A DNA stretch of 64,000 nt from a virus. Both the position numbers and the translations under genes were made by a program. The DNA lies in IMG/VR virus record IMGVR_UViG_3300042923_001106, positions 119,209 through 183,208 of that record; one strand, given 5' to 3'. A model generated the notes under the pieces. The model was given only the letters and a program-made list of their open reading frames with translations. It searched no databases and had not been told where the DNA came from. Below, in pieces: positions 2,909 to 49,402 of the stretch. Numbering within the stretch: position 1 is the stretch's first letter; every line of letters begins with the position of its first letter.

Positions 2909-2936
2909 CAAATAAAATCGATATTTCATTCAATGG

Positions 2937-2975
2937 TAGCAAGCACAACTTGGAAAATAGTGCTTGCTATTCTTT
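2937..2975 (+). terminator. Intrinsic terminator after the primase gene
   Basis: TAGCAAGCAC (2937-2946) pairs with GTGCTTGCTA (2960-2969), followed by TTCTTT. Confidence 0.65.
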
Positions 2976-2980
2976 GTATC

Positions 2981-3010
2981 TTGATATAAAATAAAAGTAT
3001 GAAATAAACT
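2981..3010 (+). promoter_or_regulatory. Probable sigma-A promoter containing the shared 17-mer ATAAAATAAAAGTATGA
   Basis: TTGATA-N18-TAAACT; the 17-mer at 2986-3002 is identical to 29387-29403. Confidence 0.45.
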
Positions 3011-3039
3011 AATTGATGAGGAGGCGGACTAAATATTCG

Positions 3040-3174
3040 ATGTTTGTCTGGTGGATCATTGGAATATGTATTTACTTCTGTTTAGTAGTACTTATCGCAA
3101 AATGCTGTGGAGGAAATACAACTTTCGATTATAAAATAAAACATAATAATACATATGGGGAGAATGAGCGATGA
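3040..3174 (+). CDS. Small single-TM peptide (44 aa; MFVWWIIGICIYFCLVVLIAKCC...)
   Basis: Manual translation gives a hydrophobic N-terminus; the stop overlaps the next start (ATGA). The RBS is somewhat distant. Confidence 0.4.
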   Translation: MFVWWIIGICIYFCLVVLIAKCCGGNTTFDYKIKHNNTYGENER

Positions 3175-3503
3175 AGTTGTATCAATTGGGCAAAGGGGTA
3201 TATAAAACTTACCGGGAAACAGTTAAAGGGAATCAAAATATCACTCCACAACAAGCACAAAAGAAATTGACTCGAAACATTATACTGGCTTTTAAAGTTT
3301 CAAAAAGCAATAATGAAAATTTAAAGCAACGGTACTTCTATGGTAACTTGCACATACTCGTAGTTGGAAATAAAATCGTCTGGATCAAAAATATTAAGCA
3401 GAATGGCAACTGGTTTTATAAGGATCAGAAAAAGTATGATGAATTGAATGTGCTGCTTGGTATTGAAAATGATTCTGAAACTATTAATCAAAGAGTCAGT
3501 TAA
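3171..3503 (+). CDS. Hypothetical phage protein
   Basis: 110 aa ORF with RBS GGGGAG. Confidence 0.7.
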   Translation: MKLYQLGKGVYKTYRETVKGNQNITPQQAQKKLTRNIILAFKVSKSNNENLKQRYFYGNLHILVVGNKIVWIKNIKQNGNWFYKDQKKYDELNVLLGIENDSETINQRVS

Positions 3504-3518
3504 TAAGAGGGAGAAAAC

Positions 3519-3749
3519 ATGAGTGAGGCACTAAAAAATGCCCTATACGATGTAGTAGAAAAAGCAAAGAAATACGATGCGATTATACATCTTAGAAAAA
3601 ATGGAGAAATCCATTGTGATTTTTGCGGTAAGTGTCAATGCGATGTTAAGAAGTTAGTAGCTGGACCAAGAGTTTTTATTTGCGACGAATGCATAGAACT
3701 ATGTGTTGAAGTTATTAAAGAAGAGAAAGTGAATGAGGAAGACAAATAA
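3519..3749 (+). CDS. Stand-alone ClpX C4-type zinc-binding domain protein
   Basis: [31 protein letters not shown] matches the ClpX N-terminal CSFCGK...VxKLxAGP.VxICDECxxLC pattern. Confidence 0.85.
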
Positions 3750-3791
3750 AATTATGCTTTCATTGAAGAAAGGGGCGCCTATTGGAAAAAT

Positions 3792-4226
3792 ATGAGGGAT
3801 ACAAGGGAAATTAAATTCCGGGGACGCCGAATTTGCAATGGTGAGTGGGTATACGGTTGGTTGTATTCAATCGTTCCATATGGAAATCCTCATGAGCGTG
3901 GTTTTATGATCAAAGAGGATATAGGAGACGATTATGAGGTCGATCCCGAATCAGTAGGTCAATATAGCGGCGTTAACGATGACGACAAGGATGAAGAGTT
4001 ATTTTCTGGAGACATCATACAGGTGGGATACGACGGCGAAACGATTGTCTGTGAAGTGATGAGAGAAGGTCCGGGATTCTTGCTGGCATCAGGCGAATTT
4101 GATGACGGATATATCTGGATCAGTGAAATAGTAGAATCGCTTGATGGCAAGTTTTATATACCTGATTCGGAATTGTTGGGAAATCGCTGGGAGCATCCTC
4201 ATCTATTAGGAGGGAACCAAGCATGA
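3792..4226 (+). CDS. YopX family phage protein
   Basis: REIKFRG...WVYG, VDPESVGQYSG and terminal ELLGNRWEHPHLL signatures. Confidence 0.85.
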   Translation: MRDTREIKFRGRRICNGEWVYGWLYSIVPYGNPHERGFMIKEDIGDDYEVDPESVGQYSGVNDDDKDEELFSGDIIQVGYDGETIVCEVMREGPGFLLASGEFDDGYIWISEIVESLDGKFYIPDSELLGNRWEHPHLLGGNQA

Positions 4227-4609
4227 GGATAGACGATATGAAGCCGGGACCGGAATTGAATGCGGAATTTGCGAAAGCACTCGGAAAGCCGAATTTGCGC
4301 AAATATAACCACTGCTATGTTTGGGACAATGTGGGGTACGTCAACGGAAAACCAGTTGGATCAGTAATGGGAACGATCGATGTTCCAGAATACTCCACAA
4401 CATGGGACGGAATGAGCGAAGTTGTTGGGGAGATGCAACGACGGGGATACAGATATTTGCTCCATGACACTCATAACGGCATATCGCTTGCGCAGTTTCA
4501 AAAATATAATGCAGAATACGAACTGACTGGGTTCGGCAGGAGTGAAGGAAAAACGGCCCCTCACGCTGTAACGTTGGCAGCTATTAGGGCTCTACAAGGG
4601 GAGCAATAA
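4223..4609 (+). CDS. Phage ABA-sandwich/BC1872-like protein
   Basis: GPELNAEFA...PEYSTTWDGMSEVV...TAPHAVTLAAIRAL pattern. Confidence 0.6.
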   Translation: MRIDDMKPGPELNAEFAKALGKPNLRKYNHCYVWDNVGYVNGKPVGSVMGTIDVPEYSTTWDGMSEVVGEMQRRGYRYLLHDTHNGISLAQFQKYNAEYELTGFGRSEGKTAPHAVTLAAIRALQGEQ

Positions 4610-4613
4610 ACGT

Positions 4614-4790
4614 ATGAAGACGCTATGTACACGTTGTAAAAAGCCGGTTTATAAAAATCGAAACCACTGGACAGATGTACACGGAAATCGCAAGCATATT
4701 CGCTGCCAAAAAGAAGAAGAACAGGAGCGCCGTGAACGAGATAAAAGAACATCTCGCATGGAGGCTCTACAAGGGGAGGATACCCAATGA
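4614..4790 (+). CDS. 58-aa Cys/His microprotein (absent from the ORF track)
   Basis: MKTLCTRCKKPVYKN...KHIRCQ...EALQGEDTQ; it ends in the shared junction motif. Confidence 0.6.
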   Translation: MKTLCTRCKKPVYKNRNHWTDVHGNRKHIRCQKEEEQERRERDKRTSRMEALQGEDTQ

Positions 4791-5014
4791 GTAAAAAAGG
4801 CGGAGATATACTTTGTGATCTCTGGAGCCGAGTCGATCAAGCGGATTTTGACACCATGATTACGGAAGCATTCAAGAAGATTCCTACGAAAATCCAAAAG
4901 AAATTCATTGCAGAAATTCTTGAAAATAATATTTGGGATTTGAACGGAAAGCCTGATGATAGAACTTTATCCGAGTGCTGGGAATTTGTTGATGCAGGGG
5001 AGGATACCCGATGA
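4787..5014 (+). CDS. Hypothetical protein (cassette block)
   Basis: ATGA overlaps at both ends, with the shared RBS motif. Confidence 0.7.
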   Translation: MSKKGGDILCDLWSRVDQADFDTMITEAFKKIPTKIQKKFIAEILENNIWDLNGKPDDRTLSECWEFVDAGEDTR

Positions 5015-5208
5015 ATAACTGTGGAGTATGCAATCATCACTTAGACATCAACCATGCCCAATTAAGACGATTCGAATTGGATGGGACTCTTACGCCGTAC
5101 CATATGGGTTGTGAGGGTGAGGCGCGGAAACTTAAGCCTTGTGTAGACTGCGGCCAACATCGACTATTATGCAGCGATTGTGCAGAGGTAGGGGAGGATA
5201 CCCAATGA
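5011..5208 (+). CDS. Cys-rich zinc-finger-like microprotein
   Basis: CGVC, HMGC, CVDC and CSDC motifs; shared junctions. Confidence 0.65.
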   Translation: MNNCGVCNHHLDINHAQLRRFELDGTLTPYHMGCEGEARKLKPCVDCGQHRLLCSDCAEVGEDTQ

Positions 5209-5402
5209 ATATTATACCAATCATCAGAAATGAAAGAGGTAGCCTGACGCTTAATAGGGCTGATTTGGATATCATCATTGGTCAGATTATTGATATATGC
5301 AGAACAGAAAAGGAACTGGAATGGGTTCAAGATCAATTAATAGGCTGCATTGAATCCATGGTGGAAGGAAAATTGGAAGAGTTGGAGGATACCCAACCAT
5401 GA
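5205..5402 (+). CDS. Hypothetical protein (MNIIPIIRNERG...)
   Basis: Start refined to ATG 5205, after the junction RBS. Confidence 0.65.
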   Translation: MNIIPIIRNERGSLTLNRADLDIIIGQIIDICRTEKELEWVQDQLIGCIESMVEGKLEELEDTQP

Positions 5403-5602
5403 AATACGCGATAAAGTTCCAAGGCGAATATATGCGCCAAAGATACGGATCAGATTGCTTTACCGACGATCTTGGTTTCGCTGTCCTATTCGATTCTCGG
5501 GAAGAAGCTGTATCCGAACTTTTCGGTGATGAGCATGTCGTTGAAATACAAGAAGACGAAGAAGGCGGAATCTGGGAGGATACAGCAAATGGAATGGATT
5601 AA
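5399..5602 (+). CDS. Hypothetical acidic protein
   Basis: RBS junction and ATGA overlap. Confidence 0.65.
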   Translation: MKYAIKFQGEYMRQRYGSDCFTDDLGFAVLFDSREEAVSELFGDEHVVEIQEDEEGGIWEDTANGMD

Positions 5603-5906
5603 TTGCAGCGACAGAATGCCGGAACCGGCTCAACGTGTACTTGCAGTATTCCCAACAGGGTATAAGGGTGTCAGGCATATTTCCTTAGTCATTTACGTTC
5701 CGGCCAAATCAGTAAAGGCGGAAGATTTGTGGGACGACGACAGTGATTGTGTTGAATACGACGAAGAGAAGGATTGCTTCTACGTCGAAGAAGGTTGGTA
5801 TGAATCGTCTTACGAGTCGGAAAAGGATTGGCGTTTGAATTACGAGGTAACTCACTGGATGCCATTACCTCATGTTCCAGTGGCACAAGGGGAGGATAAA
5901 GGGTGA
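5589..5906 (+). CDS. DUF551-like phage protein
   Basis: MEWINCSDRMPE...VTHWMPLP; start refined to ATG 5589. Confidence 0.8.
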   Translation: MEWINCSDRMPEPAQRVLAVFPTGYKGVRHISLVIYVPAKSVKAEDLWDDDSDCVEYDEEKDCFYVEEGWYESSYESEKDWRLNYEVTHWMPLPHVPVAQGEDKG

Positions 5907-6163
5907 AACAGCCAAACATAAAAATATTCGGAAAAACTCATAAAGTCGTTCAAATCGAATTTAACGACGATGGCTTAATCCAAAAGATCATATATAAGGC
6001 AAATCAACACAATAACAGAATAGTATTCCGACGAGACGATATGGTGGATGAATCGCTCGTACGGAAATACAAAATCCACGAGCCAACAAATCATCCATAC
6101 CACAACTATGCTCATGCGCCTGATCTGGAGTCTTTATTGGTACAAGGGGAGGATACCCAATGA
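5903..6163 (+). CDS. Hypothetical protein
   Basis: GTG start after GGGGAGG; ends in GEDTQ. Confidence 0.65.
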   Translation: MKQPNIKIFGKTHKVVQIEFNDDGLIQKIIYKANQHNNRIVFRRDDMVDESLVRKYKIHEPTNHPYHNYAHAPDLESLLVQGEDTQ

Positions 6164-6318
6164 AGCGTGAACTGATTATATCCGGTTCGGTAGAAAAATG
6201 TTGGGCTTGCAAGGGTCGAGGATATTCGGGATCTGAAAACCATCCCGAATGCGTAGTTTGTAGTGGATATGGTTGGTTGCCGAAGGGAGAAGAAGATGCC
6301 GAGACGCCATCCAGATGA
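6160..6318 (+). CDS. 52-aa DnaJ-type zinc-finger microprotein (absent from the ORF track)
   Basis: CWACKGRG...CVVCSGYG, i.e. two CxxCxGxG motifs. Confidence 0.65.
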   Translation: MKRELIISGSVEKCWACKGRGYSGSENHPECVVCSGYGWLPKGEEDAETPSR

Positions 6319-6451
6319 AGTTAAGCAAAAATGCGGACGATGCAGCCGAGAGAGATACGAACTCGTTAAATGTGGCGGAATATATGTATGTTGGAACTGC
6401 TGCAACTACCTAAAAAAGTCGGGGGATGATACCCATGGAACCAGTAAGTAA
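6296..6451 (+). CDS. Cys-rich microprotein
   Basis: CGRC...CWNCC; RBS before ATG 6296. Confidence 0.5.
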   Translation: MPRRHPDEVKQKCGRCSRERYELVKCGGIYVCWNCCNYLKKSGDDTHGTSK

Positions 6452-6782
6452 TGCTGATAAGTTGAGAGATAAAGCACCGGAAGATATAGACGATGTCCTA
6501 TCCGAACTCGAAGACTTGAGCAAATTTTGGAAAGAGGCAATGAGGGAGCAAGCCGAGGAATATATTGAATCTCTCCAATCCATACAGCAGGAAAGGGATA
6601 AACTGCTTCGCAAACTGAACTATAAAGACTTGATTATCTCAAATGCGGTGGAATTAGTTGAGGATCGAGAAAAAGTGCTTTCGGAATTGCGACCATTCGT
6701 TTCACCAGAGCATCAAAAATTAATAGATTCAGTGGTGGACAACGGGAGTTTCAATGTCGGAGTAGGGGAGGAAAGGACATGA
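6435..6782 (+). CDS. Hypothetical coiled-coil protein
   Basis: ATG 6435 follows the junction variant; helical, charged sequence. Confidence 0.65.
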   Translation: MEPVSNADKLRDKAPEDIDDVLSELEDLSKFWKEAMREQAEEYIESLQSIQQERDKLLRKLNYKDLIISNAVELVEDREKVLSELRPFVSPEHQKLIDSVVDNGSFNVGVGEERT

Positions 6783-7045
6783 CCGAATTGACGGAACAGC
6801 GAAAACGGGAGATCGCTGAGATGGCCCGGAGGGATTTAAACGCTCATGCATGGTTATGCGAACAAGAGCAGGAAGAATATGCCACTGAGGTTCTTTCCCT
6901 CCAACAACAGGTAAACACGCTGACGAAACAGATTGAGGCAGCGTTAACCGATTTGGAAGCATATAAACCTTTAACGGCTATAGTCGTCCTTAAAAGTGCC
7001 ATACAGTCTATAAAGGAATCCCCGAGGGAGGAGCAAGGGAAATGA
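6779..7045 (+). CDS. Hypothetical protein
   Basis: RBS GGGGAGG and ATGA overlap. Confidence 0.65.
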   Translation: MTELTEQRKREIAEMARRDLNAHAWLCEQEQEEYATEVLSLQQQVNTLTKQIEAALTDLEAYKPLTAIVVLKSAIQSIKESPREEQGK

Positions 7046-7308
7046 TTAAATTGACATATTTTGAAGGTGACGCGCTGTATATTGCGCCAGATCGAATTAT
7101 CGCCGTTTATGATGATATTTCCGCGACAACGATAAGTTGCGGTGGAGAACTTTTCAGCGTGGAAGAAAAGCCAGAAGAAGTAGTACGCAAGATCATGGAT
7201 TACAAACTGGCTATGATTGAATACCGTTCGAAATTCCAAAACAATAAATCTGTTGCTGACATATTGTGGGGAATGAATAAACTGGCCGGATTGGAGCAGA
7301 CCCCATGA
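7042..7308 (+). CDS. FlbD/SwrD-like domain protein
   Basis: MIKLT...YIAPDRIIAV...TTISCGGELFSVEEKPEEVVRKI resembles the FlbD family pattern. Confidence 0.55.
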   Translation: MIKLTYFEGDALYIAPDRIIAVYDDISATTISCGGELFSVEEKPEEVVRKIMDYKLAMIEYRSKFQNNKSVADILWGMNKLAGLEQTP

Positions 7309-7709
7309 TAGTACGAATCACATTTGGCGACCGAGTAATGATGTTTGGAGATAGCTATAAGCCGTGGCACATGCAGATGGACGAATATATGCGGCGATGT
7401 GCAGAAGGATTGCCAAGACCGGAAAGGGTTGAAGTATCAAAATCAAAGTGGATCGGGTGGGGTGGCTTAAAGTGGTGTTCATCGGATAACTTTCAGCATG
7501 AGTTGAACCGTGAAGGGTGCCAAGAAAGCGATCCAGACAATTCTCGGCCACGTAAATACGCTGATATGGAGTTTGCTCCGGCAAAAGGAAAGGTGTTGGG
7601 GAAAGTATACGATGCATGGGAGTCTGGTCAGCGATTGATGAAAATCGGGAAATTAAATGATGAAGAATATAGGTTGTATCAGCGCGGAGAATTGAAAATA
7701 ACTGTCTAG
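7305..7709 (+). CDS. Conserved hypothetical phage protein
   Basis: 134 aa ORF with RBS and ATGA overlap. Confidence 0.7.
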   Translation: MIVRITFGDRVMMFGDSYKPWHMQMDEYMRRCAEGLPRPERVEVSKSKWIGWGGLKWCSSDNFQHELNREGCQESDPDNSRPRKYADMEFAPAKGKVLGKVYDAWESGQRLMKIGKLNDEEYRLYQRGELKITV

Positions 7710-7740
7710 GCCCAATAGGGGATAAAGGGAGAGAAAATGA

Positions 7741-7929
7741 ATGGCTAAATATGTGTTTTTTGCATCGACTGGGTATGTTGGATCAAGCCGTGAAGAAACT
7801 GTAGAAATTCCGGACGAGGAACTTGAGGGCATGTCTGAGAACGAACAAACTGCGTACGTTGATAAAAATTATTATCAGGATTGGTTGGCGGGAAACACTG
7901 AATTATCATTTTGGAAAGTCGACGAGTAA
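7741..7929 (+). CDS. Small acidic phage protein
   Basis: STGYVGSSREETVEIPDEEL; RBS GGGAG. Confidence 0.65.
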   Translation: MAKYVFFASTGYVGSSREETVEIPDEELEGMSENEQTAYVDKNYYQDWLAGNTELSFWKVDE

Positions 7930-8459
7930 AGGAGAATCCCCATGGAACAGATAGAGGGGTAGAAGGGTAACGTACCTATAACCCCCTTTATCGGCCCCCA
8001 CTTCGTTAAGCGGATTCGGTCGAGTCGTAGGATTAGTCAAAGGACGAAAGATGAACACCAATACAATGCGAGAAACTGCCGCAAGGGCTACGATGTGTGT
8101 ACTGCAAAACAATGGAAAAGAATAAGTTAGCGAAAGCAAAAAGTTGGTTTGGACAAGGGGAATACAATGTTAATTTGATGATTTCCGCTGGGGTAATAAC
8201 GGAATATCGAATTCTACAAATGTACGAAAAAGAAGTAGAAGGCAAGTAGCATTTTGAATAATTTGTCCGTAAGGGGTGAAACAGGGATGGATGAAAAGAA
8301 GTGTCCTAACGAGTGTGGAGATTTAGAAAATGTTAGAGGTCATATCGAAACGAATGACGGAAGAACGTATTTCAAAGTGGATATTTTATATTGTCCTGAT
8401 TGTCATTACATTCAAAACGTAGATGCCAACTTGTAACATTTTGAAAAGGCGGTGTAGAT

Positions 8460-8845: not shown

Positions 8846-9289
8846 ATGAAAAAGGAAATTGTAAGTGTACCTAAAATTGAATATCAGCCAGTACAAACAG
8901 GTATTTCAAATGTTGAAATATGGATCACGAGCGATGGAGGAAGATTTGAAAACGAACAAGATGCCGAACATCACGAATTCTTGTGGCGCGTTGCTTGGAA
9001 AAATAAAAACCTTAACTTACATTATGATCCTGAAACTTTTGAATTTGAAAGTCTCGAGGATGCCATACGATATTTTAAAATTTATTCTGTTTATGAGAGG
9101 AAAGATTACTCCCTAGAGGAACTAAGTTATCCTTGCAAGGTTGTAAAGTACAGTGAGTATTCTTCCTGTGATTGCGCACTTCAGTATCAAAACGAGCATT
9201 ATTGTACGGAAGAAGATATGAGAATAACGAAAATCATTCCATTAGAAGACTACAAAAAGATGATGATCGAATATATAAGCGATCTATGA
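8846..9289 (+). CDS. Hypothetical protein
   Basis: Bounded by junction palindromes at 8813 and 9285; RBS AAGGGGG. Confidence 0.7.
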   Translation: MKKEIVSVPKIEYQPVQTGISNVEIWITSDGGRFENEQDAEHHEFLWRVAWKNKNLNLHYDPETFEFESLEDAIRYFKIYSVYERKDYSLEELSYPCKVVKYSEYSSCDCALQYQNEHYCTEEDMRITKIIPLEDYKKMMIEYISDL

Positions 9290-9524
9290 AATCTAAATTT
9301 CATGGGAAGGAGTATTTTCATGAGTTATGATCCAGAATTTTATTATCAAGAGTTGGGAATGGAAAAAGATGTTCTGGAACTCGAAATCAAGGATTGTGAA
9401 AAACTAATCGATAAACATAAAAAGAGAATTAAAAAAATAAATAAAAAGATGAAAGAGCTAGAGAATGAAATATAACTTTTATTCACCAAGGATCAAAAAT
9501 GAAGATTGAATGATGAGGTGAAAA

Positions 9525-10181: not shown

Positions 10182-10640
10182 ATGAACGGATTAACGGATG
10201 TTAGGTTTATTTTAGACCAAAAGCATGATTATGATATCGGTTCAGAAATTTCAATTTATCTCGGAAATAATGTTGTTGGTCAAGCAAAAGTTCTTTCAAA
10301 GAATTCAACATGCTGTATTAACCACCGAACTAATGATCGTGAACAACTTTATGATTATACCTTTGAAATCAGCGAAAATCTAAAGGCGTCTGGACACAAT
10401 AAATATACGCCTTATTTTAATGGGGCATACGGACGCCTGTGTGTTTCGGATAATGAATTGCTGAGAAAACAAGAGAAGGAAATGCACCAGCGGAACGTAG
10501 ATCGGGTTCGTAAGCAAGATATTAGTTTTAAATATGTATGCTTGTCTTGTGAAACTGTAATCGCTTCGAGCAAAGAGTTCAAATCTACCTCCTGTAAACA
10601 TTGCCGAAAGGGTAAATTAGAGCGAGTAAGTAATTGGTGA
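10182..10640 (+). CDS. Hypothetical protein with C-terminal zinc ribbon
   Basis: CLSC...CKHC; RBS GGGGG. Confidence 0.7.
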   Translation: MNGLTDVRFILDQKHDYDIGSEISIYLGNNVVGQAKVLSKNSTCCINHRTNDREQLYDYTFEISENLKASGHNKYTPYFNGAYGRLCVSDNELLRKQEKEMHQRNVDRVRKQDISFKYVCLSCETVIASSKEFKSTSCKHCRKGKLERVSNW

Positions 10641-10668
10641 TAAAAGACAAATTTGATTAGGTGAGAAA

Positions 10669-10872
10669 ATGGATAACGAAATATATGAGAGGCATTTACA
10701 TGTCCTTGATCCTTACGAGTATGAAGTTGTAGTCCGACGATACGGATTAAGAGGCTTTGAAAAAAGAACGCAAAAAGAAGTAGGCAATGAACTGGGTGTC
10801 AGCTGGTCGTTTGTATCCAGAGTTGAAAAACGGGGGATTTTTAAAATTAAACATGAGTTGATAAAAGAATAA
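10669..10872 (+). CDS. Stand-alone sigma-70 region 4 HTH resembling sporulation sigma-K/E
   Basis: LDPYEYEVVVRRYGL...RTQKEVGNELGVSWSFVSRVEKRGIFKI is close to the SigK-type TQREIAxxLGISRSYVSRIEKR pattern. Confidence 0.75.
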   Translation: MDNEIYERHLHVLDPYEYEVVVRRYGLRGFEKRTQKEVGNELGVSWSFVSRVEKRGIFKIKHELIKE

Positions 10873-10898
10873 TAACCATTAAATTGGAGTGTGCAGAT

Positions 10899-11123
10899 AT
10901 GCGAAAAACACTGTACGACTATATTAGCGAAAAGTACCCACACAGTATTAATGATTCGGATATGGAATGTATAGAAGATGACATTGCAGTCTATCTCATC
11001 CAAGGATTCACACTAGAAGAATGTGTTGATGCAGCAATACAGTATTACCATAATCATCGAATTTTCCAAGACGATCCTGCATCATGCTTTGGATTTGGAA
11101 TGCGAGAATATTTAGACGAATAA
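10899..11123 (+). CDS. Hypothetical protein
   Basis: ATG 10899 follows GGAGTG; the stop lies within the palindrome at 11119. Confidence 0.6.
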   Translation: MRKTLYDYISEKYPHSINDSDMECIEDDIAVYLIQGFTLEECVDAAIQYYHNHRIFQDDPASCFGFGMREYLDE

Positions 11124-11159
11124 AAGAGAATTTTCATTGGGAGATGAATTCAAAAGAAA

Positions 11160-29377: not shown

Positions 29378-29380
29378 ATG

Positions 29381-40464: not shown

Positions 40465-43400
40465 TTGCGATACAATAACTATCATAAACATACCCATTAC
40501 AGTAACATCGTCACACCTGACTGTATTGTTAAACCGATAGATTACGCAAAGCGAGCAATCGAATTGGGTCACACTACGATTTGTACAACTGAGCATGGCT
40601 ATGCTGGGAATGTATTTGAATATTATGATGTAACTAAACAGCATAACCTTAAACTTATCTTTGGAGTAGAATTTTACTATGTCAACGACCGCTTTGAAAA
40701 GGACAAATCGAATACTCACTTAATGATTCTTGCTAAGAATAATGAAGGTAAACGAGAGTTAACTAGACTTATTACGGAATCGAACAAGACTGGATTTTAT
40801 TATAAGCCTCGTATAGACAAACAATTAGTGATGGGTCTAAATCCTGAAAATGTTCTAGTTACATCCACTTGTATAATCAGTTATGTGGGCAAATGTGAAG
40901 ACTACGAACAGAACTTTGTATTGCCATTTATGAATCACTTTAAGTGTAACTTCCTGCTGGAGATTCATGATAATGCCCATAGAATGCAAGTAAACTATAA
41001 TAAAAAAATCCTTGCCTTACATGAGAAATATAATATTCCCTTAATTCACGCTACTGATTCTCATTACATATATCCTGAGCAGGATAAGGATCGAACACAG
41101 TTCTTGAATGGTAAGAATATTTACTATGAAGAAGAAGAAGGATTCATACTTGATTATCCTGATTCTGAAACAATCTTTAAACGGTATGAAGAGCAGGGTG
41201 TTTTCACAAAAGAACAAGTGGAGCAATCTTTAAATAACACCCTGCTCCTCGATGATTTTGAAAATATCAAAATGGACAAAGAAATAAAGATGCCATCAAT
41301 TTACCCGAATTGGTCGCATGAACAAAAGGTTAAAAAACTAAAAGAAATAATCACAGAGGAATGGAAAAAGGACAAAAAAGAAATCAATCCAAAACGTGTC
41401 GGTGAATATCTTGATGCAATTCGATTTGAAACAAAAATTATTGAAGATACATCAATGGAAGATTACTTTTTGCTCAATTATGATATCATCAAACGGGCAA
41501 AAGAGAACGGAGGGATATTGACTCGTACAGGTCGAGGATCGGCACCGAGTTTTTACATAAATAAACTCCTTGGCTTTACAGAAATTGACCGATTAGAAGC
41601 ACCAGTAACACTTTATCCAACTCGATTTATGAGTACATCTCGTATTCTTGAATCTAAAAGTTTGCCAGATATCGATTTTAATACATCTCAACCTGAAGCA
41701 TTTATTAAAGCAGCCATAGAGATACTTGGTGAAGATAATGTTTATTACATGACAGCTTACGGTACAATGCAAGCAAGCGAGGCGTTCAGAAACTATTGTA
41801 GAGCTATTAACTTAAAAATGGACGATTACAATGATGTCGGAAAAAATCTTGACCAGTATAGGAATGATGATAAATGGAAAGACATTATCAAAGAATCAGA
41901 GAAGTTTATAGATGTTATTGATAGCGTTTCTCCACATCCTTGTGCGTTTATCCTATTGTCTCAACCTGTATCTGAAGAGATAGGAATTATTAGAGTTGGA
42001 AGTAAAGAGAAGGTTAACTTTTGTGCATTGATAGACAGTACTACATCTGACTCTTGGAAATATCTGAAGAATGACTTTCTCACAGTAAGTGTATGGGAAA
42101 TTATCGCTAACACTTATAAGATGATTGGAATTCCAATACATAATATTCGTGAATTATCTCGCTTAGTTGAAAGTGATAAGCGAGTTTGGGATTTGTATGA
42201 AAATGGATTAACTGTTACACTCAATCAAACAGGAACGGATTCAGGGACACCTCAAGTTATGCAATATAAACCTAAGAATGTACGAGAATTAACTGGTTGG
42301 GTCAGCGCAATTCGACCATCATTCGTATCTATGAAGCATTACTTTTTAAATAGACAAGAATTCTCATACGGGATTAAAGAACTCGATGACCTTTTAATCG
42401 AAAGTGACAACTTTATTTTATACCAAGAGAATATAATGCGTGTTCTTGTGTGGGTAGGGTTCCCCGAAGATGAAACATACGGGCTATTAAAAGCCATCGC
42501 CAAAAAGAAAGAAGGAATCATTGAACCGATTTATGAGCGGTTTATTGATGGTTTCGTAGAGAAGACAAATAGCGAAGAGAACGCCGAGTTAGTTTGGAAG
42601 ATAATAGAGAATTCTGTGGACTATGGTTTTAACTCTTCGCATGCTTACTCTGTAGCATTGGACAGTCTTTATGGAGCATACCTTAAGGTAAATTACCCAC
42701 TTGAATATTTTACAGTAATACTTACGAAATACGAGGATGACACAGAGACAACAAGTAAAATTTTTAAAGAATTACCATACTTCAGTATAAGTATATCACC
42801 AATCAAATTCAGACAATCAAAAGCACATTATTCACCTAATAAAGAAAAAAATACAATTTACAAAGGCATTAAAAGTGTTAAATATCTGAATGAGAAGATT
42901 GCCGAGGAGTTGTTTGAACTTGGCAAAAAACATTATGATTCATTCATTGATTTACTCATTGATATTACCGAGAGCACATCGGTAAATACAAGGCAACTTG
43001 ATATTTTGATAAAACTGAACTTTTTTTCTGAATTTGGTCAAAACAATGAATTGTTGCAAATATACAATGAATTTACGTCAATGTACAAAAAAACATACGT
43101 TGAGAAAACAAAAGTAAAACGGATAGGAGAGTTAAGGCAACGAGAAGATGAGATTCGAAATATGTTACAAGATAAAACTTTACCTATTCACGAATCCATC
43201 ATGTTCCAGAAAGAAATGCTTGGGTATGCTGATTTAAGGTTTCCAAACTCTAAAGATTGGTTTGTTATCGTTGATATCGATAAAAAGTATACTCCTAGAC
43301 TAACCGTATATGAATTATTAACCGGCGAAGAAAAATCAATCAAAGTAGAGAAGAAGAAATTCTTCATCGGAAATGGAGAAACCTTAAAAATAGGTGATAC

Positions 43401-43515
43401 AGTCAAGATTACTCAGTCAGAGATGAGACCGAAGAGCAAACTTGTAGATGGAAAATGGGTTAAATCTGAAGATCAGTTTGATGAGTGGTTGGTGTCGTGC
43501 TCAATCAAGAGATAG
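40465..43515 (+). CDS. dnaE: DNA polymerase III alpha subunit (PHP plus polymerase; YorL-like)
   Basis: NYHKHTHYS, TTEHG, GRGSA, PDIDF, ILYQE and YGFNSSHAYS motifs. Confidence 0.92.
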   Translation: MRYNNYHKHTHYSNIVTPDCIVKPIDYAKRAIELGHTTICTTEHGYAGNVFEYYDVTKQHNLKLIFGVEFYYVNDRFEKDKSNTHLMILAKNNEGKRELTRLITESNKTGFYYKPRIDKQLVMGLNPENVLVTSTCIISYVGKCEDYEQNFVLPFMNHFKCNFLLEIHDNAHRMQVNYNKKILALHEKYNIPLIHATDSHYIYPEQDKDRTQFLNGKNIYYEEEEGFILDYPDSETIFKRYEEQGVFTKEQVEQSLNNTLLLDDFENIKMDKEIKMPSIYPNWSHEQKVKKLKEIITEEWKKDKKEINPKRVGEYLDAIRFETKIIEDTSMEDYFLLNYDIIKRAKENGGILTRTGRGSAPSFYINKLLGFTEIDRLEAPVTLYPTRFMSTSRILESKSLPDIDFNTSQPEAFIKAAIEILGEDNVYYMTAYGTMQASEAFRNYCRAINLKMDDYNDVGKNLDQYRNDDKWKDIIKESEKFIDVIDSVSPHPCAFILLSQPVSEEIGIIRVGSKEKVNFCALIDSTTSDSWKYLKNDFLTVSVWEIIANTYKMIGIPIHNIRELSRLVESDKRVWDLYENGLTVTLNQTGTDSGTPQVMQYKPKNVRELTGWVSAIRPSFVSMKHYFLNRQEFSYGIKELDDLLIESDNFILYQENIMRVLVWVGFPEDETYGLLKAIAKKKEGIIEPIYERFIDGFVEKTNSEENAELVWKIIENSVDYGFNSSHAYSVALDSLYGAYLKVNYPLEYFTVILTKYEDDTETTSKIFKELPYFSISISPIKFRQSKAHYSPNKEKNTIYKGIKSVKYLNEKIAEELFELGKKHYDSFIDLLIDITESTSVNTRQLDILIKLNFFSEFGQNNELLQIYNEFTSMYKKTYVEKTKVKRIGELRQREDEIRNMLQDKTLPIHESIMFQKEMLGYADLRFPNSKDWFVIVDIDKKYTPRLTVYELLTGEEKSIKVEKKKFFIGNGETLKIGDTVKITQSEMRPKSKLVDGKWVKSEDQFDEWLVSCSIKR

Positions 43516-43727
43516 TTATTTTTACCCAATGAATCATCGCTTTCATTAGTAAATAAAATAAAACAATAACGTACAAGGAGAAATAAAATGATCACATACG
43601 CTATTTTCAAATCCAATATCGAAAAATTACTGAACAGGCAAATCACAAATGACGAAATGATTGAACTTTGTGGTGAGCCCCTATATAAACTGCTGCAAGA
43701 AACCTTTCAGTTAAAGGGGTTGAAACA

Positions 43728-43916
43728 TTGAAACCGATTAGGATGAAGAGATATCGAGAGCAAGAGTTAGAGGCTGCAATTAAAGATAATGAAAGTAGAG
43801 GATTTACTGTTGTGAGGCGTTGGGAAGTACCGATTACATATGATATGGGAGCAAGAACGCGATATACATATTGCGCCGAGATGATTAAGTCGGTAGATAA
43901 AACGAATATTTCATAG
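43728..43916 (+). CDS. Hypothetical protein
   Basis: TTG start; stop within the palindrome at 43896. Confidence 0.5.
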   Translation: MKPIRMKRYREQELEAAIKDNESRGFTVVRRWEVPITYDMGARTRYTYCAEMIKSVDKTNIS

Positions 43917-43928: not shown

Positions 43929-44474
43929 TTGGCCAAAAAGAACCCCGGTAAAGAATTCGAAGCACAACTACAAAAAAGTTGCCAAAGTGTTGGAGTGTTC
44001 TATGATCGAATAAAGGATACTCCACCAAAAGTCAAGGTAGGTAAAAATAAGTATGACTATTACATATATCAGATACCAAATTTGTTTGCCCTAGAATTAA
44101 AATCAACAGGAGATAAATCGATAAGTTTTAGCGAGAAGATAATCAAACAACATCAAATAGACAATCTTACAGAAGCAGCAACACATAAAGGTATTATTGC
44201 GGGGTTCATCTTTAATTACAGGGAATATGATAATGCTACCTTCTTTGTACATATCACAGAGTTCAACAAGTACAAGTTAGTCGCTCAATCAACAAGTGAT
44301 GATCATACATACGTGAAAGTAAATAAAAGTTCGATTCCACTTGAAGTGTGTGAGCAGATTGGAATAAAAATAAATAATTATAAAATGAGAACTAATTATC
44401 ATTATCATATAAAGGATTTTATTGATAAAGCTGTATCTACATATAGCATAGGACAAATGAATGAAAATAATTAA
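43929..44474 (+). CDS. recU: RecU-like Holliday junction resolvase
   Basis: GKEFE, YDY, LELKST, IKQHQI and GFIFN, i.e. the PD-(D/E)xK RecU pattern. Confidence 0.8.
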   Translation: MAKKNPGKEFEAQLQKSCQSVGVFYDRIKDTPPKVKVGKNKYDYYIYQIPNLFALELKSTGDKSISFSEKIIKQHQIDNLTEAATHKGIIAGFIFNYREYDNATFFVHITEFNKYKLVAQSTSDDHTYVKVNKSSIPLEVCEQIGIKINNYKMRTNYHYHIKDFIDKAVSTYSIGQMNENN

Positions 44475-44726: not shown

Positions 44727-44764
44727 GCATATGTGCTTTTTCTTGTTCCTGTTGATATTCTACA

Positions 44765-44794
44765 TTTACTCATAAATATTGAGTGGTGTATAAT
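44765..44794 (+). promoter_or_regulatory. Sigma-A promoter of the serine recombinase, with an overlapping inverted repeat
   Basis: TTTACT-N18-TATAAT; ACTCA-N7-TGAGT in the spacer. Confidence 0.55.
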
Positions 44795-44840
44795 GGTAAT
44801 TAATATGTTTCATAAAAAACAACAAGGAGGCACTGAAGTT

Positions 44841-46346
44841 GTGTCGCAATACACTGTAAAATATGTAGCAATATATGTACGAAAATCTAGAGGCGATTTA
44901 GAGCACGATTTGGCAAAGCATCTAGCAGAACTAATCAAGCTGTGTGAAGAAAATAACTGGACTTATGCAGTTTACAGTGAAATAGGAACATCTGATTCCA
45001 TTGAATTACGCCCTGTTATGAGCGAATTGTTGTCAGATGTTGAACTTGGCATGTTCGATGCCGTCTGCGCGGTTCACATCGACCGTTTGAGTCGTGGTGA
45101 TGCAGTGGATAGAGCCAAGATACAGAAAATTTTGGGGAAGACAGAAACCTTATTAATAACTCCTCAAAGAGTATATGATTTCACAAACGAGACTGATTTG
45201 CTTATGGCTGAATTTGAAGGCTTAATGGCTCGGATGGAGTACAAACAAACATCAAGAAGGTTTAAGCAAGGAAAAGCACGAAATGCAAAATTGGGATTCT
45301 GGTCAAATGGAAAACCGCCGTATCCATATTATCGAGACAGTGAAAAAAAGAAAGCCGTTGTAAATCCAGATTATCGACCAGTATACAGAAGAATGGTCGA
45401 CTTGTGTATGCAGGGTTGGACATTTACAGATATTGCGTGGGAGCTAAACAAATTAGCCATTCTTTCACCCAAGGGTGGAATGTGGAGTCATGTAGTAGTT
45501 GGTAATTTGCTTCAGGATGAAGTTCATCTAGGACATATTGTGGTAGGAAAAACAACAAAAACGGCTACCGGAGATAAGATTCACAGAGAAAAGGAAAAAT
45601 GGATTGTATACAAAAATTGTCATGAAGCCGTAAAGACGCAAGAAGAGCACGATAAAATTATTTTTTTAACAAACAGAAATAAAAGATCGAGTAAGGCCAG
45701 TAGAGCAGGTAAGCAAGTATTTTCTGGATTACTTTATTGCGCCTGTTGTAGTAAAGCGATGCAAATTCAAAAGCAAAAGAACAGACCAAATGACTCAGTA
45801 CGATCTTGTAGAACGCATGATGCTTTTGGAGTCAGATGTATTAATTTAGGCGGAAGTGTTACAGCAATAAATGAAGTAATTTATAATGCACTAATAAAGA
45901 AGAAAGAATATTTAATTAAAGCAATCAATGAAGGAATATCAGATGATGATACTAATGAACTTCAACAGATTGCATCAACTAAGTTGAAAGAAATAAAACT
46001 CCATGAAAAAAGAATTGAGAAAATTTATCGTAATCAAGAAAGTATGCTGTACTCAGAAGAAGAAGATGAGAACGATGCAATATTCCGTGAAAGATTAAAA
46101 AAAGCAAAAGAAGAATTAAAGCTACTTGAGGACGAGTATACTTCTTTGTCCACCCAAATTGAACGAGCACTCGACACAAGGAACGAAGATTTACTTCTAA
46201 ATATTGAGGACGTTTTGAAACTACTCAACAAGCCATCAATCGAAGATAAAGAAAAAAATCGTGCATTGAAAAGTATCATTAACAGGATAGAGTGGAAAAG
46301 ATTAAGGATTGATGAACAGCCGACAATATATGTAAATTTTCTTTAG
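44841..46346 (+). CDS. Large serine recombinase/integrase (SprA-like)
   Basis: YVRKSR (catalytic Ser), DRLSRG, NGKPPYPY, zinc ribbon FSGLLYCACC and a coiled coil; GTG 44841 follows GGAGG. Confidence 0.92.
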   Translation: MSQYTVKYVAIYVRKSRGDLEHDLAKHLAELIKLCEENNWTYAVYSEIGTSDSIELRPVMSELLSDVELGMFDAVCAVHIDRLSRGDAVDRAKIQKILGKTETLLITPQRVYDFTNETDLLMAEFEGLMARMEYKQTSRRFKQGKARNAKLGFWSNGKPPYPYYRDSEKKKAVVNPDYRPVYRRMVDLCMQGWTFTDIAWELNKLAILSPKGGMWSHVVVGNLLQDEVHLGHIVVGKTTKTATGDKIHREKEKWIVYKNCHEAVKTQEEHDKIIFLTNRNKRSSKASRAGKQVFSGLLYCACCSKAMQIQKQKNRPNDSVRSCRTHDAFGVRCINLGGSVTAINEVIYNALIKKKEYLIKAINEGISDDDTNELQQIASTKLKEIKLHEKRIEKIYRNQESMLYSEEEDENDAIFRERLKKAKEELKLLEDEYTSLSTQIERALDTRNEDLLLNIEDVLKLLNKPSIEDKEKNRALKSIINRIEWKRLRIDEQPTIYVNFL

Positions 46347-46568: not shown

Positions 46569-47402
46569 ATGAAATTGGAAGAACAAAAAAGAATGGTCAG
46601 CAATATCGATGTGGGTTTCGAATTGCTATCGGACAAGCCTTTAAAATATAAAGAAAAATGTATTATTCTATGCTCCAAGGGGCATCAAATCGAAACGGCA
46701 TGGAGAGACATAAAGAAGAAACTGGAAAGCGCAGGTTTTTGTAATAATTGTTTTATGGTCAAAAAGATGATGGAACGAGCTATGGAAAAAGGTTATACCC
46801 TACTCAGCGATGAATGGAACGGTTACACAGCAGATTATAAATTTTTATGTCCAAATAATCACGAGCAAACATATGTTTGGAAATATTTTAATGATCATGA
46901 TGGTAACCATTGTATCGAATGTTACAATCAACGGGTTTTAGAAGGCAATCACACAGCCACATCAGAAGAATTCAAGCAGCATCAAAAGGAAAGGTTATTG
47001 AGTAGAATGAGTGAGCTAGGATATACTCTAGATCAGCAAAGTTATTCTTATGTAAACAATAAAGATAGAATTAATATGATTTGCTCAAGTAATCATAAAT
47101 ACGAAGTTGAATATGCTCATTTTATGCAAGGTAAGAAATGTAGAAAATGTGGCTATGATAACTGGCGACTATCCGAAGAGGAAGTTAAAACAGAACTTGA
47201 AAGTATGGGCTATACCTATCTTGGTGAATATCATAGAATAGACGAGCCATTGAAATATATTTGCACATGCGGACATGTTACCAGAAAGAGATTGACCGAC
47301 CTACGAAGAGGTCAAAAATGTATTCGGTGTGCAAAGAAATATACAGTTGAGAATAGACGGAAAGAGCGAATGATATTATTAGAGCAAGAGTTTAATAAGT
47401 AA
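46569..47402 (+). CDS. Four-repeat zinc-ribbon protein (homing-endonuclease-type DNA-binding repeats, no nuclease domain seen)
   Basis: Four repeats of about 55 aa: G(F/Y)xL...C-x1-3-(G/N)H...CxxC. Confidence 0.75.
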   Translation: MKLEEQKRMVSNIDVGFELLSDKPLKYKEKCIILCSKGHQIETAWRDIKKKLESAGFCNNCFMVKKMMERAMEKGYTLLSDEWNGYTADYKFLCPNNHEQTYVWKYFNDHDGNHCIECYNQRVLEGNHTATSEEFKQHQKERLLSRMSELGYTLDQQSYSYVNNKDRINMICSSNHKYEVEYAHFMQGKKCRKCGYDNWRLSEEEVKTELESMGYTYLGEYHRIDEPLKYICTCGHVTRKRLTDLRRGQKCIRCAKKYTVENRRKERMILLEQEFNK

Positions 47403-47426
47403 TATTGCATCAAAAGGAGAAGAGGT

Positions 47427-47759
47427 ATGACTCATCAATTCCGTGGATTAATTAAATGTTTGAATTGTGGTAAGAACTACAAGACAAAAAGTGAACGTAA
47501 AAAGTCTGTATATGTGTGTTCAGGATTTGCAAATTATGGAAAAGATTTTTGTTCATATTTCCCTCTTCAGGAAGAAGACCTAACGTACACTGTATCGAAA
47601 CACTTATCTCTACAAAATAAAAGTGCTGTATCAAGCTTGTCCGAATACGTACTTGTAATCGAAGTTAAAGGGATTGGATATAGGATACTCTACAAAGACG
47701 GAACTGAATCGCTGATTAATTGGAACGGTAGTGAATACGGTGTAAAGGTAAAGTATTGA
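47427..47759 (+). CDS. Stand-alone recombinase zinc-beta-ribbon domain protein
   Basis: FRGLIKCLNCG...YVCSGFANYGKDFC...LQEEDL. Confidence 0.75.
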   Translation: MTHQFRGLIKCLNCGKNYKTKSERKKSVYVCSGFANYGKDFCSYFPLQEEDLTYTVSKHLSLQNKSAVSSLSEYVLVIEVKGIGYRILYKDGTESLINWNGSEYGVKVKY

Positions 47760-47824
47760 TTCCAAGATTTCCATATGTCATCTTAAATCTTCCTATGCTA
47801 TGTTTAAATTTAGGAGATGACATA

Positions 47825-48712
47825 ATGAGGTTAAATCAACCGTTTGATCCAATGGTACTCGTAAAGTCCGATTCGATTCCAAAAGGTGACTACCTACATC
47901 AATTCAAATGGGATGGTCATAGAGGGCTTCTACATTATGACAATGGAACCAACAGGCTTTATACAAGAGAAATGAATCTGATCGGAAACTATCCTGAAAT
48001 AAACAGCCTAAAACTTACTGCAAAGAACTGCATTCTTGATGGAGAGTGTATTGTTTTGTCTAACGAATCGAACCCCCCATTACCATGCTTCGAAAGTATC
48101 ATGACTCGGTTCCACACAACTAAGACAATGAAAGTCAAATCATTACTAAATACTCTGCCAGTTCACTTTGTCGTATGGGACATACTTTACCTCAATGATG
48201 AACCGTTGGTTAGACTGCCACTTTATAAACGTCTTGAGATACTAAAAAACTTGATTATACCGGATCAAAGAATTTCAATAACTCCTTCTTTTGAGGACGG
48301 AGAAGCCTTGTTTAAACAAGTTGTTGCAATAGGTGCTGAAGGGGTTGTCAGTAAACCGAAGGATGGTATTTATACTTTTGGGACTTCTTCGGGCAGAAAT
48401 GCGTGGTATAAAATCAAAAATTATCAATATGCTATTGTTGAGATTAATGGATTCAAGAAGAAAGACTTTGGTTGGAGCTTATCAATCGACGGAAAATATG
48501 TCGGGGTATTGGAGTTTCCCCCACCAAAAAAACAAATATTTGAATTTTACAGTGTTGCAAAACAATTGATAAAAAGAGAAAATGAAAATTGGATATATAT
48601 TGAACCGATACTCAAATGCAAAGTGAAATTTCAATGCTATAGTAGGGATGGTAAACTAAGATCTCCAAGTTTTGTCGAGTACATCAACTTAGGTGTGGGT
48701 GATAAGGAATGA
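47825..48712 (+). CDS. ATP-dependent DNA ligase
   Basis: QFKWDG (motif I), ILDGE, FVVWD, EGVVSK and WYKIK motifs; ATG 47825 follows AGGAG. Confidence 0.9.
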   Translation: MRLNQPFDPMVLVKSDSIPKGDYLHQFKWDGHRGLLHYDNGTNRLYTREMNLIGNYPEINSLKLTAKNCILDGECIVLSNESNPPLPCFESIMTRFHTTKTMKVKSLLNTLPVHFVVWDILYLNDEPLVRLPLYKRLEILKNLIIPDQRISITPSFEDGEALFKQVVAIGAEGVVSKPKDGIYTFGTSSGRNAWYKIKNYQYAIVEINGFKKKDFGWSLSIDGKYVGVLEFPPPKKQIFEFYSVAKQLIKRENENWIYIEPILKCKVKFQCYSRDGKLRSPSFVEYINLGVGDKE

Positions 48713-48912
48713 TGGTCGAGAAATACAAACTTAAAAACGAAGCAGATAAGACAATGTTCGTTTTCAACCAAAGTGGAAAAGTCTATGGGCATATCATTAA
48801 GGATCGTACTGAAAAAGCACCCGCAAAACTTATCTTCGAAACGGGGAAGTACACAACTGTAGAAGAATTAAAAAATGATTACCCAGAAATCGAAGGAACT
48901 GATGGTGAGTGA
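48709..48912 (+). CDS. Hypothetical protein
   Basis: ATGA overlap with the ligase. Confidence 0.6.
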   Translation: MMVEKYKLKNEADKTMFVFNQSGKVYGHIIKDRTEKAPAKLIFETGKYTTVEELKNDYPEIEGTDGE

Positions 48913-49112
48913 TAATAAGTGGGGAAAAGGTCAGAATATTAGATTCTAATTTGCATTTGTATACAGCGGCAGTAGAGGACTCAAAAATTCTTGTGTTCCT
49001 CGGTTTTGAAATGATTGGTAGCGGAAAGATTGAGGGGATAACCGATTTATCGGTGCAAGTAAATGGAGTAAAGTATCCAAAAGAAAATTGCATATTTTAT
49101 GCGGTGGGGTAA
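48909..49112 (+). CDS. Hypothetical protein
   Basis: GTGA overlap. Confidence 0.55.
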   Translation: MIISGEKVRILDSNLHLYTAAVEDSKILVFLGFEMIGSGKIEGITDLSVQVNGVKYPKENCIFYAVG

Positions 49113-49117
49113 AATAT

Positions 49118-49252
49118 ACCTCCCTCATGATAATTATGTGAAAAAAGTAACTTAGGACGACAATTTTTATAAAATTCTTTTTGTCCTATTTAACATGAGG
49201 GAGGTTTAAGGCGCATTACAATAATGTTTATAGGTTCGAGTTAGGACGACAA
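49118..49252. repeat. Intergenic hairpin with a 12-bp IR and a 12-bp direct repeat
   Basis: ACCTCCCTCATG 49118-49129 pairs with CATGAGGGAGGT 49194-49205; inner TAGGAC/GTCCTA; TTAGGACGACAA occurs at 49152 and 49241. Confidence 0.6.
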
Positions 49253-49402
49253 AATAACCTCGTTTTTTCGTCGATTTACTCATTTTTGCTACGTTTTTCA
49301 CGTTCATTTATCCAATGAAATTGTTATTTTATTTGCTCTCCTAATAAACTCGTTGCCCAGAAGTATTGCCCAATTGTATAATCGTGGTAATGGGGGAGAT
49401 AT

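Follow-up and report, generated by a model that had tools for sequence, protein, structure and literature searches.

The DNA analyzed here, referred to as the window, comprises the last 64 kb (positions 119,209 to 183,208) of a single 183,208-bp virus record (IMGVR_UViG_3300042923_001106; G+C content 35.8%; rated complete by CheckV). Coordinates are those of the window unless the genome is named. For 26 open reading frames (ORFs) of the phage, matching SPbeta proteins were detected (22-60% identity), among them tail proteins, a YonO-type RNA polymerase, YopP, YopQ, YopR/MrpR, a primase, a RecJ-like exonuclease, a DNA polymerase and a large serine recombinase. Because of these matches, the window phage can be classed as a distant SPbeta-like phage. 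Searches by megablast and tblastn against phages, viral contigs, genome contigs and a protein database did not reveal any relative above approximately 60% protein identity, a value that the nearest relative in the collections reached for one well-conserved protein. Pfam matches within the window were obtained for ribonucleotide reductase, dUTPase, ThyX, a Pol III alpha-type polymerase, an ATP-dependent ligase, a LAGLIDADG endonuclease, a serine recombinase and a GH25 lysin. The subject of this study is a 20-bp palindrome, RATRAAA-N6-TTTYATY, which recurs between the genes of the early plus-strand arm and was originally predicted to delimit mobile gene cassettes. We consider the palindromes to be inter-gene linkers that serve as ordered points of gene exchange, an interpretation to which we give even chances.

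Structure and position of the palindrome

The pattern was matched exactly 16 times in the window, whereas 0.13 matches were expected and none of 100 dinucleotide shuffles gave more than two. Allowing one mismatch, 28 copies were found, which agrees well with the approximately 30 copies of the original prediction, whose five example coordinates are all correct. The whole genome harbors 51 exact copies (0.3 expected from shuffles) and 103 copies with at most one mismatch (4.7 expected), scattered across 130 kb. Thus, the comparison with shuffled DNA that had been suggested along with the prediction placed the motif far above expectation. The layout of conserved arms around a 6-bp spacer also turned out to be real, and the spacer is strictly 6 bp long. 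The same arms separated by any other distance between 2 and 11 bp gave just 0-3 exact matches in the genome, and direct or everted arrangements of the arms gave 1-5. These controls bear on the simplest explanation, namely that the palindrome is a compositional by-product of AT-rich junctions between stop codons and ribosome-binding sites. The intergenic DNA is indeed rich in A and T and a TAA or TGA stop may reside within the left arm, but the explanation is already refuted by the shuffle and spacer-length controls, and reversed patterns produced only 0-2 matches. Its probability is negligible.

The profile of the palindrome is dyad-symmetric, including weak preferences at the edges of the spacer and just outside the arms. 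Both arms represent the same half-site, conservation is limited to 7 bp per arm and the length is fixed at 20 bp. In the window phage as well as in SPbeta, the palindrome is the top-scoring palindromic signal. Almost all copies follow a stop codon and precede the ribosome-binding site of the next gene, with co-directional genes on either side. The next start codon follows the end of the right arm at a distance of 10-25 nt, and a Shine-Dalgarno (SD)-like sequence was found within 12 nt after the right arm in 70 of 95 early-arm copies, in line with the predicted ribosome-binding site at this place. The prediction had also located upstream stop codons at positions 3-5 of the left arm. All 12 stops named for it are correct and 11 of them lie in copies with at most one mismatch, while the stop at 9289 sits in a copy with two mismatches (9283-9302), whose inner core is perfect. 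Genome-wide, the TAA or TGA of the arm terminates a frame of 40 or more codons in 40 of the 95 early-arm copies. Since TRA is a stop in one phase of three, about one third would be expected, and the stop codon within the left arm looks like economy of space rather than coupling to termination.

The fixed place between stop codon and SD, and the short distances to the SD and the start codon, would suit a signal at the RNA level, such as a processing site, a translational operator or an enhancer. An unpaired RNA site, however, needs no dyad symmetry, and in the most frequent combination of arms, A faces C on the transcribed strand. Four out of six copies had no predicted RNA structure, and Rfam and tRNA scans gave no matches. 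Moreover, copies are also present at divergent and minus-arm junctions, and the position-specific conserved cores described below would be left unexplained. A signal of this kind is therefore very improbable. An RNA hairpin was rejected: arm positions 4 and 17 combine independently of each other (A-T 32, A-C 31, G-T 20, G-C 17), which together with the four copies that do not fold argues for duplex DNA read by a protein.

Within the window, the first copies are exact and lie at 2911-2930, 2 nt past the stop of ORF 1829-2908, and at 3745-3764, where the stop of ORF 3519-3749 occupies motif positions 3-5; the latter is the last copy ahead of a GC-rich block. Beyond the block, copy 9283-9302, whose two mismatches are outer ones, likewise contains the stop of ORF 8846-9289 at positions 3-5 and is followed by an SD. 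It is succeeded by an exact pattern match at 9464-9483 and by a copy with one mismatch between ORFs 10182-10640 and 10669-10872 (10639-10658). The left arm holds the stop of the preceding ORF in the exact copies 11119-11138 (ORF 10884-11123), 12344-12363 (ORF 11950-12348), 15096-15115 (ORF 14855-15100), 19829-19848 (ORF 19573-19833), 20960-20979 (ORF 20584-20964), 33594-33613 (ORF 32480-33598) and 34329-34348 (ORF 34076-34333). The same applies to the copies 14814-14833 (ORF 14618-14818), 18052-18071 (ORF 17544-18056), 30674-30693 (ORF 30466-30678) and 39411-39430 (ORF 38690-39415), each with one mismatch, while in copy 13167-13186, also with one mismatch, the stop of ORF 12595-13176 falls into the spacer. 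Further exact copies adjoin the SD of ORF 14618-14818 with their right arm (14583-14602), begin 3 nt past the stop of ORF 15138-15380 (15384-15403), separate the dUTPase and ThyX genes (28532-28551) or lie 31 nt ahead of the start of ORF 37489-38673 (37438-37457). Single mismatches were found in the copy that precedes the ribonucleotide reductase genes and separates ORFs 24496-24708 and 24813-26138 (24729-24748), in the one just past the DNA polymerase gene, 12 nt after the stop at 43515 (43528-43547), and in the one 13 nt ahead of the start of ORF 43929-44474 (43896-43915). According to the original prediction, the GC-rich block at 3.8-8.4 kb and the lysis/tail arm are devoid of copies. This holds for the block and is nearly right for the arm, as exact copies are present at 49314-49333, in the divergent region joining the plus and minus gene arms, and at 52165-52184, within minus-strand ORF 52065-52739. 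The last one may have arisen by chance or may not belong to a junction.

A crude gene call gave approximately 241 plus-strand genes for the early arm, with the core motif at 77 junctions and 33 single genes that have linkers on both sides. Homologues in two relatives were found for 2 of these 33 genes, compared with 27 of 120 genes without linkers. Since linker-bounded genes rarely have homologues, the linkers mark the accessory part of the genome with its fast turnover, as they do in SPbeta.

The palindrome is not restricted to the window phage. Six SPbeta-like genomes contain 34-45 copies each of the core T-R-AAA-N6-TTT-Y-A, compared with 5-13 in shuffles, and a prophage of Paenibacillus ferrarius has 72-75. 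The palindrome also recurs in one metagenomic contig and, more sparsely, in Alicyclobacillus phage KKP_3916, Bacillus phage vB_BcoS-136 and Brevibacillus phage Sundance, where the reversed-pattern controls gave 0 matches. It is a family trait of the SPbeta-like group that extends to other large Bacillales phages. In those SPbeta publications that we examined, the 1999 genome paper (Lazarevic et al.) not being among them, the palindrome is not described. The possibility that the palindrome belongs to a host regulon was rejected. In the 9.2-Mb genome of P. ferrarius the copies are concentrated in the prophage of about 155 kb, which harbors 30 of 46 exact copies; the reversed-pattern control gave 2.

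Mosaic breakpoints at the linkers of related phages

Breakpoints were compared in the six SPbeta-like phages SPbeta, phi3T, SPbetaL4, SPR, Goe11 and SPbetaL2, whose genomes are mosaic at 90-99% DNA identity. Flanks were judged by Smith-Waterman alignment of 100 nt, with the threshold set above the null maximum. In an initial 20-kb segment, all seven motif junctions were mosaic breakpoints, as opposed to 13 of 33 other junctions. A total of 67 out of 69 motif junctions were broken in at least one comparator, compared with approximately 48% of the other junctions and approximately 60% of those others that have a gap of at least 25 nt. Copies with an identical 6-bp core persist in several phages while the upstream gene, the downstream gene or both are unrelated. 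Among 51 families of copies with the same core, the flanks were unrelated on at least one side in 36 and on both sides in 21. Both flanks were unrelated in 114 of the 392 genome pairs sharing a core, where about six chance coincidences would be expected. In most cases, identity stops 5-7 nt outside the core; islands with unrelated DNA on both sides have a median length of 20 bp, and the outermost bases of each arm go along with the adjoining flank. An unbiased search for isolated short exact matches of 15 bp was noisy (1397 real versus 624 null matches), with 80 motif islands versus 0 in the null. The coincidence of breakpoints with the motif, a check named along with the prediction, was thus found in these six phages, and it was also found in one Paenibacillus prophage pair.

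The order of shared cores was perfectly collinear in all 15 genome pairs (Kendall tau 1.000; 21-32 shared cores each). When orthologues were defined by their flanks alone, the core showed 1.2% substitutions, compared with 1.7-2.4% in the arms and 2.6-4.5% in the flanks. No core was duplicated within a genome in any of the eight genomes examined. In the window phage, there were 0 duplicates among 92 cores, where 2.6 pairs would be expected, and for the Paenibacillus prophage 1.7 pairs would be expected. For the three lineages combined, the absence of duplicate cores has a P value of approximately 0.01-0.02.

In the P. ferrarius prophage, a cassette of 730 bp matches a segment of a second species with 98% identity. 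This homology runs exactly from linker to linker and the DNA outside is unrelated. Four cores of the prophage recur at this locus of the second species without a change in order (0.16 expected by chance). One Paenibacillus prophage cassette (139928-140591 of its record) contains an ORF with 82-85% DNA identity to copies in three other Paenibacillus genomes. Those copies reside in a bacterial context with their own promoter and without linkers, and the homology is confined to the ORF, which may have been captured into the slot or exported from it.

Movement of a gene as a unit between two sites is also a feature of the system originally predicted, in which a unit consisting of ribosome-binding site, ORF and stop/site would be excised as a circle and integrated elsewhere by a tyrosine recombinase. 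Integron cassettes are promoterless single genes bounded by recombination sites (attC/attI) with 7-bp core sequences. In Xer/dif and in the pdif sites of Acinetobacter plasmids, inverted A/T-rich inner arms enclose a 6-bp central region and gene modules occur in different contexts; the 11-bp XerC and XerD arms differ in sequence and the host XerCD is used. The 7-6-7 palindrome, with its two inverted arms around a strict 6-bp center, has the layout of such tyrosine-recombinase core sites. Besides the Paenibacillus cassette, the 33 single genes of the early arm bounded by two sites and the Xer-like genes of the phage agree with this proposal. Yet the arms of the linker are 7 bp long, symmetric and phage-specific, its cores are unique, and 11-bp arms of the dif consensus are absent. 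The linkers also lack the IntI/attI/Pc platform of integrons; the Phage_integrase genes are not at the head of the array, over which the copies extend for 130 kb. While attC is defined by its fold and varies in sequence and length, the linker has a fixed length and conserved arms, and shows no covariation, no stable fold and no attC-like folded structure. Finally, integration at a single site would duplicate the core, but no pair of sites with the same core exists in the eight genomes, so that insertion of circles is not supported, and the invariant order of cores between phages means that cassettes do not move to new positions. The inference of mobile cassettes was therefore not sustained and is quite unlikely to be correct; the data fit a slot-by-slot replacement in which order is kept.

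Hybrids of SPbeta and phi3Ts obtained in the laboratory have been reported with 16 homologous junctions and one non-homologous junction (Suppl. Table 1 of 10.1101/2020.05.06.055103). Chromosomal coordinates were converted to phage coordinates by the offset implied by PMC8270828. Junction 7 ('30 bp') then mapped on a linker (SPbeta 69422-69441; phi3Ts 62421-62440) with no more than 21 identical bp between unrelated flanks. Junction N1, the non-homologous one, corresponds to position 4 of the SPbeta linker 116413-116432, 13 nt away from the phi3Ts copy with the same core. Hence, two laboratory junctions are situated at motif copies as well. The remaining ones fall into homologous blocks of kilobase length, and linkers form the ends of several of these blocks. 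In the hybrids Hyb1-3, the crossovers occurred inside long identical blocks in which the exact point is not resolvable, and four of the six block edges are linkers. In SPbeta-like phages, a further repeat of approximately 18 bp and of the form AGAATAAAAATAAAATTA separates the right arm of some linkers from the SD that follows. It was found, for instance, at positions 132766, 120659 and 113677 of the SPbeta record and at 107374-107393 of phi3Ts, and junction N1 lies inside one copy.

Candidate proteins and mechanisms

If the palindromes are exchange points, the two inverted 7-bp arms, alike at every junction, would be half-sites for a dimeric protein, while the 6-bp core between them differs at each junction. 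In two phages of the group, a stretch of about 20 bp is identical only where the junctions have the same core, and recombination there would swap the gene or genes between two linkers without changing the gene order. The approximately 100 linkers of the window phage, 26-28 of them in the window, divide the early arm into slots that mostly contain one to three small accessory genes. The symmetric and strictly spaced arms call for a dimeric protein that reads duplex DNA, and the core, being junction-specific, conserved and never duplicated, calls for a process by which the cores of two DNA molecules are compared. Both could be provided by a tyrosine recombinase with a 6-bp crossover region or, less specifically, by recombination over about 20 bp of identity or by template switching. 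Our leading guess for the enzyme is a phage-encoded Xer-like tyrosine recombinase with crossover at the 6-bp core, the YomM-like protein being the first and the YopP-like protein the second candidate. A linker retained for another reason, at which short-homology recombination or template switching takes place, appears about as likely as a recombinase.

Engineered cassette exchange by means of heterospecific lox or FRT spacers relies on identical arms, only sites with like spacers recombine, and the segment is replaced in place. We know of no natural equivalent in phages. The engineered system is a laboratory design. Tentatively, and with some doubt, the linkers may be regarded as a natural counterpart of recombinase-mediated cassette exchange, in which a Xer-like enzyme reads the 7-bp arms and exchanges strands across the 6-bp core. 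With an own core per junction, only the same junction of two co-resident phages would recombine. The approximately 100 cores would then act as an address code by which genes are traded singly throughout the phage family, slot by slot, with no deletions and in constant order.

The genome of the window phage encodes three proteins with a tyrosine-recombinase fold. They were found in the search of the remaining genome and are all located outside the window, for which the absence of such a gene had correctly been stated. One of the two Phage_integrase genes is located in the tail region and the other one in a yopM-R-like operon. The YomM-like integrase (genome 13680-14663) aligns to archaeal XerA and has the full set of R, K, HxxR, H and Y residues, while the YopP-like integrase (genome 40242-41378) possesses HxxK instead of HxxR. 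Also encoded are a protein of the MrpR family (genome 92993-93991; 70.8 bits; relatives PDB 8a0a and 9rd5), a YopQ homologue next to it that matches Pfam DndB of the ParB/Srx superfamily, and an HU-like homologue of YonN. Just downstream of the YopQ/MrpR-like pair lies a gene for an AgrB-family protein (genome 94800-95327; 66.4 bits).

A number of observations weigh against the linkers as points of gene exchange. The absence of duplicate cores is only marginally significant. Breakpoints are common at junctions without the motif, too, and part of the breakpoint enrichment may be confounded, because variability is concentrated where the motif is abundant. In the laboratory, ordinary homologous recombination prevails: 14 of the 16 junctions lie inside long homologous blocks, and microhomology alone could account for the two linker junctions. 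The window phage and the Paenibacillus prophage have five cores in common (1.8 expected), but with unrelated flanks, and this may be due to chance. Exchange at the window phage's own linkers would be an extrapolation, because the collections contain no close relative. As to the enzyme, YomM of SPbeta and both YopP proteins carry HxxK rather than HxxR. Genes for YomM-like and YopP-like proteins are also found in phages with few copies, and the comparison of gene profile and motif density is not discriminating. To these points has to be added the MrpR binding study discussed next.

Alternatively, the arms might be operators of a regulatory lattice that coats or road-blocks the long early operons in the manner of stoperators or KorB sites. 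Recombination would then be a by-product, arising since the sites are the sole conserved sequence between variable genes. Candidate lattice proteins are the MrpR-like repressor, the ParB/DndB-like YopQ homologue and the HU-like YonN homologue, all of which the phage encodes. Dyad symmetry, strict spacing and the lack of pairing covariation suit a dimeric DNA binder. In addition, the approximately 100 sites are intra-operonic; a conserved -35 or -10 sequence was not found in the flanks of the 51 exact copies and there are almost no sigma-A-like promoters nearby. There is also a precedent in SPbeta, which is silenced through the SPbeta repeated element (SPBRE), the operator of the recombinase-fold repressor MrpR (YopR) (PMC10516654). 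However, in chromatin affinity purification sequencing (ChAP-seq) of MrpR in SPbeta, all ten peaks were at SPBRE and none at palindrome copies, although SPbeta carries both elements (PMC10516654). Furthermore, a pure operator leaves unexplained why the core is conserved above the flanks, unique within a genome and collinear between genomes. We consider such a lattice rather unlikely on balance. As the primary function of the arms, it can nevertheless be compatible with a role in exchange.

Stoperators of cluster A mycobacteriophages resemble the linkers in that tens of copies of a short site are spread over short intergenic gaps of a temperate phage genome. They are described as asymmetric 13-bp sites that follow the direction of transcription and to which the immunity repressor binds as a monomer (PMC9283540, PMC6550527). 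The linker in contrast is dyad-symmetric, and stoperators have neither a variable core nor a reported role in exchange.

Our first guess that the palindrome is SPBRE itself was rejected. We derived an SPBRE consensus from the ten SPbeta promoters reported as MrpR ChAP-seq targets. It comprises about 20 bp including ATACAAA-W-AATATGTAT, differs in sequence from the palindrome and occurs 11-13 times in SPbeta. Both are repeated elements of the same phage family, and SPBRE, long known from sequence only, is bound by a protein with a tyrosine-recombinase fold. SPBRE, however, resides inside approximately 11 early promoters between -35 and -10, whereas the palindrome lies between stop codon and SD. 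In the genome of the window phage, SPBRE gave 0 matches at up to three mismatches. As the genome contains no SPBRE, its MrpR homologue needs some other site, a point in favor of the lattice. When exact 11-mers were counted in search of further repeats, the yield was limited to an A/T repeat associated with promoters. A second repeat, AATAAAATAAA-Y/W-R-T, is present at 29371-29412 of the window (genome 148579) and at genome positions 43118, 43722, 44050, 47574 and 48629/48647. It often forms two direct copies 18 bp apart which overlap sigma-A-like promoters, and it opens with the same half-site as the left arm of the linker. This repeat is a candidate analogue of SPBRE and a putative operator of the MrpR-like repressor of the window phage. 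For this role, it is better suited than the palindrome, which again speaks against the lattice.

Relation to known linkers and neighboring genes of the window

The closest known concept is that of the promoter-early stem-loop (PeSL) of T4-type phages, a composite of promoter and terminator stem-loop, whose exchange has been ascribed to homologous recombination between any two PeSLs, nearby ones giving rise to mini-circles (PMC2839356, PMC4122927). Like PeSLs, the linkers are a short conserved motif that recurs among the small dispensable genes of hypervariable regions, and the end points of insertions, deletions and replacements lie at the motif, as we observed in SPbeta-like phages and the Paenibacillus prophage. 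Unlike PeSLs, the linker is a bare 20-bp palindrome, for which no promoter consensus, terminator or stable stem-loop was found. Its arms are invariant and its 6-bp core is position-specific within a collinear scaffold. A position-specific core limits the partners to the same junction and thereby preserves the gene order. Within the concept of conserved linkers, the system described here is new, and there is a real chance that it represents a new type of site-specific system.

Precise mosaic joints at gene boundaries have been debated since the modular theory of phage evolution was put forward. According to one view, short conserved linkers guide the exchange; according to the other, joints arise by random illegitimate recombination and are filtered by selection. 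The palindrome provides a clear and countable linker system, with one 20-bp sequence in about 35-100 copies per genome, a junction-specific core and a collinear scaffold. Since it is present in SPbeta and phi3T, which are tractable in Bacillus subtilis, the question of boundary mosaicism becomes accessible to ordinary experiments. For annotation, the linkers are of value in delimiting accessory slots in which SPbeta-like phages carry genes for defence and counter-defence (e.g., Gad1 and Gad2), and they are a simple marker for the wider group of large Bacillales phages. Should a dedicated recombinase indeed read arms and core, the linkers would represent a novel kind of site-specific recombination.

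The GC-rich block of the window (3792-8436) has a G+C content of 44%, compared with about 35% around it, and consists of approximately 15 short, tightly overlapping ORFs without any linker copy. It begins 28 nt beyond the linker 3745-3764, and a lone sequence resembling a left arm follows the block near 8643. The block looks like a foreign module dropped into one slot. The proteins of the two ribonucleotide reductase genes (24813-27835) are 80-85% identical to those of the P. ferrarius prophage, while other genes common to both phages show 20-63% identity. This difference suggests that the pair, which has a linker copy just upstream at 24729, may be a recently exchanged module. A free-standing LAGLIDADG homing-endonuclease gene (39555-40397; 75.6 bits) is located directly upstream of the gene for the Pol III alpha-type DNA polymerase (40465-43515). 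The gene of the large serine recombinase, a homologue of SprA, lies near the end of the plus arm (44733-46346). At approximately 49.3 kb (region 49112-49403), the lysis/tail genes on the minus strand take over, and the divergent gap holds the exact palindrome copy mentioned above.

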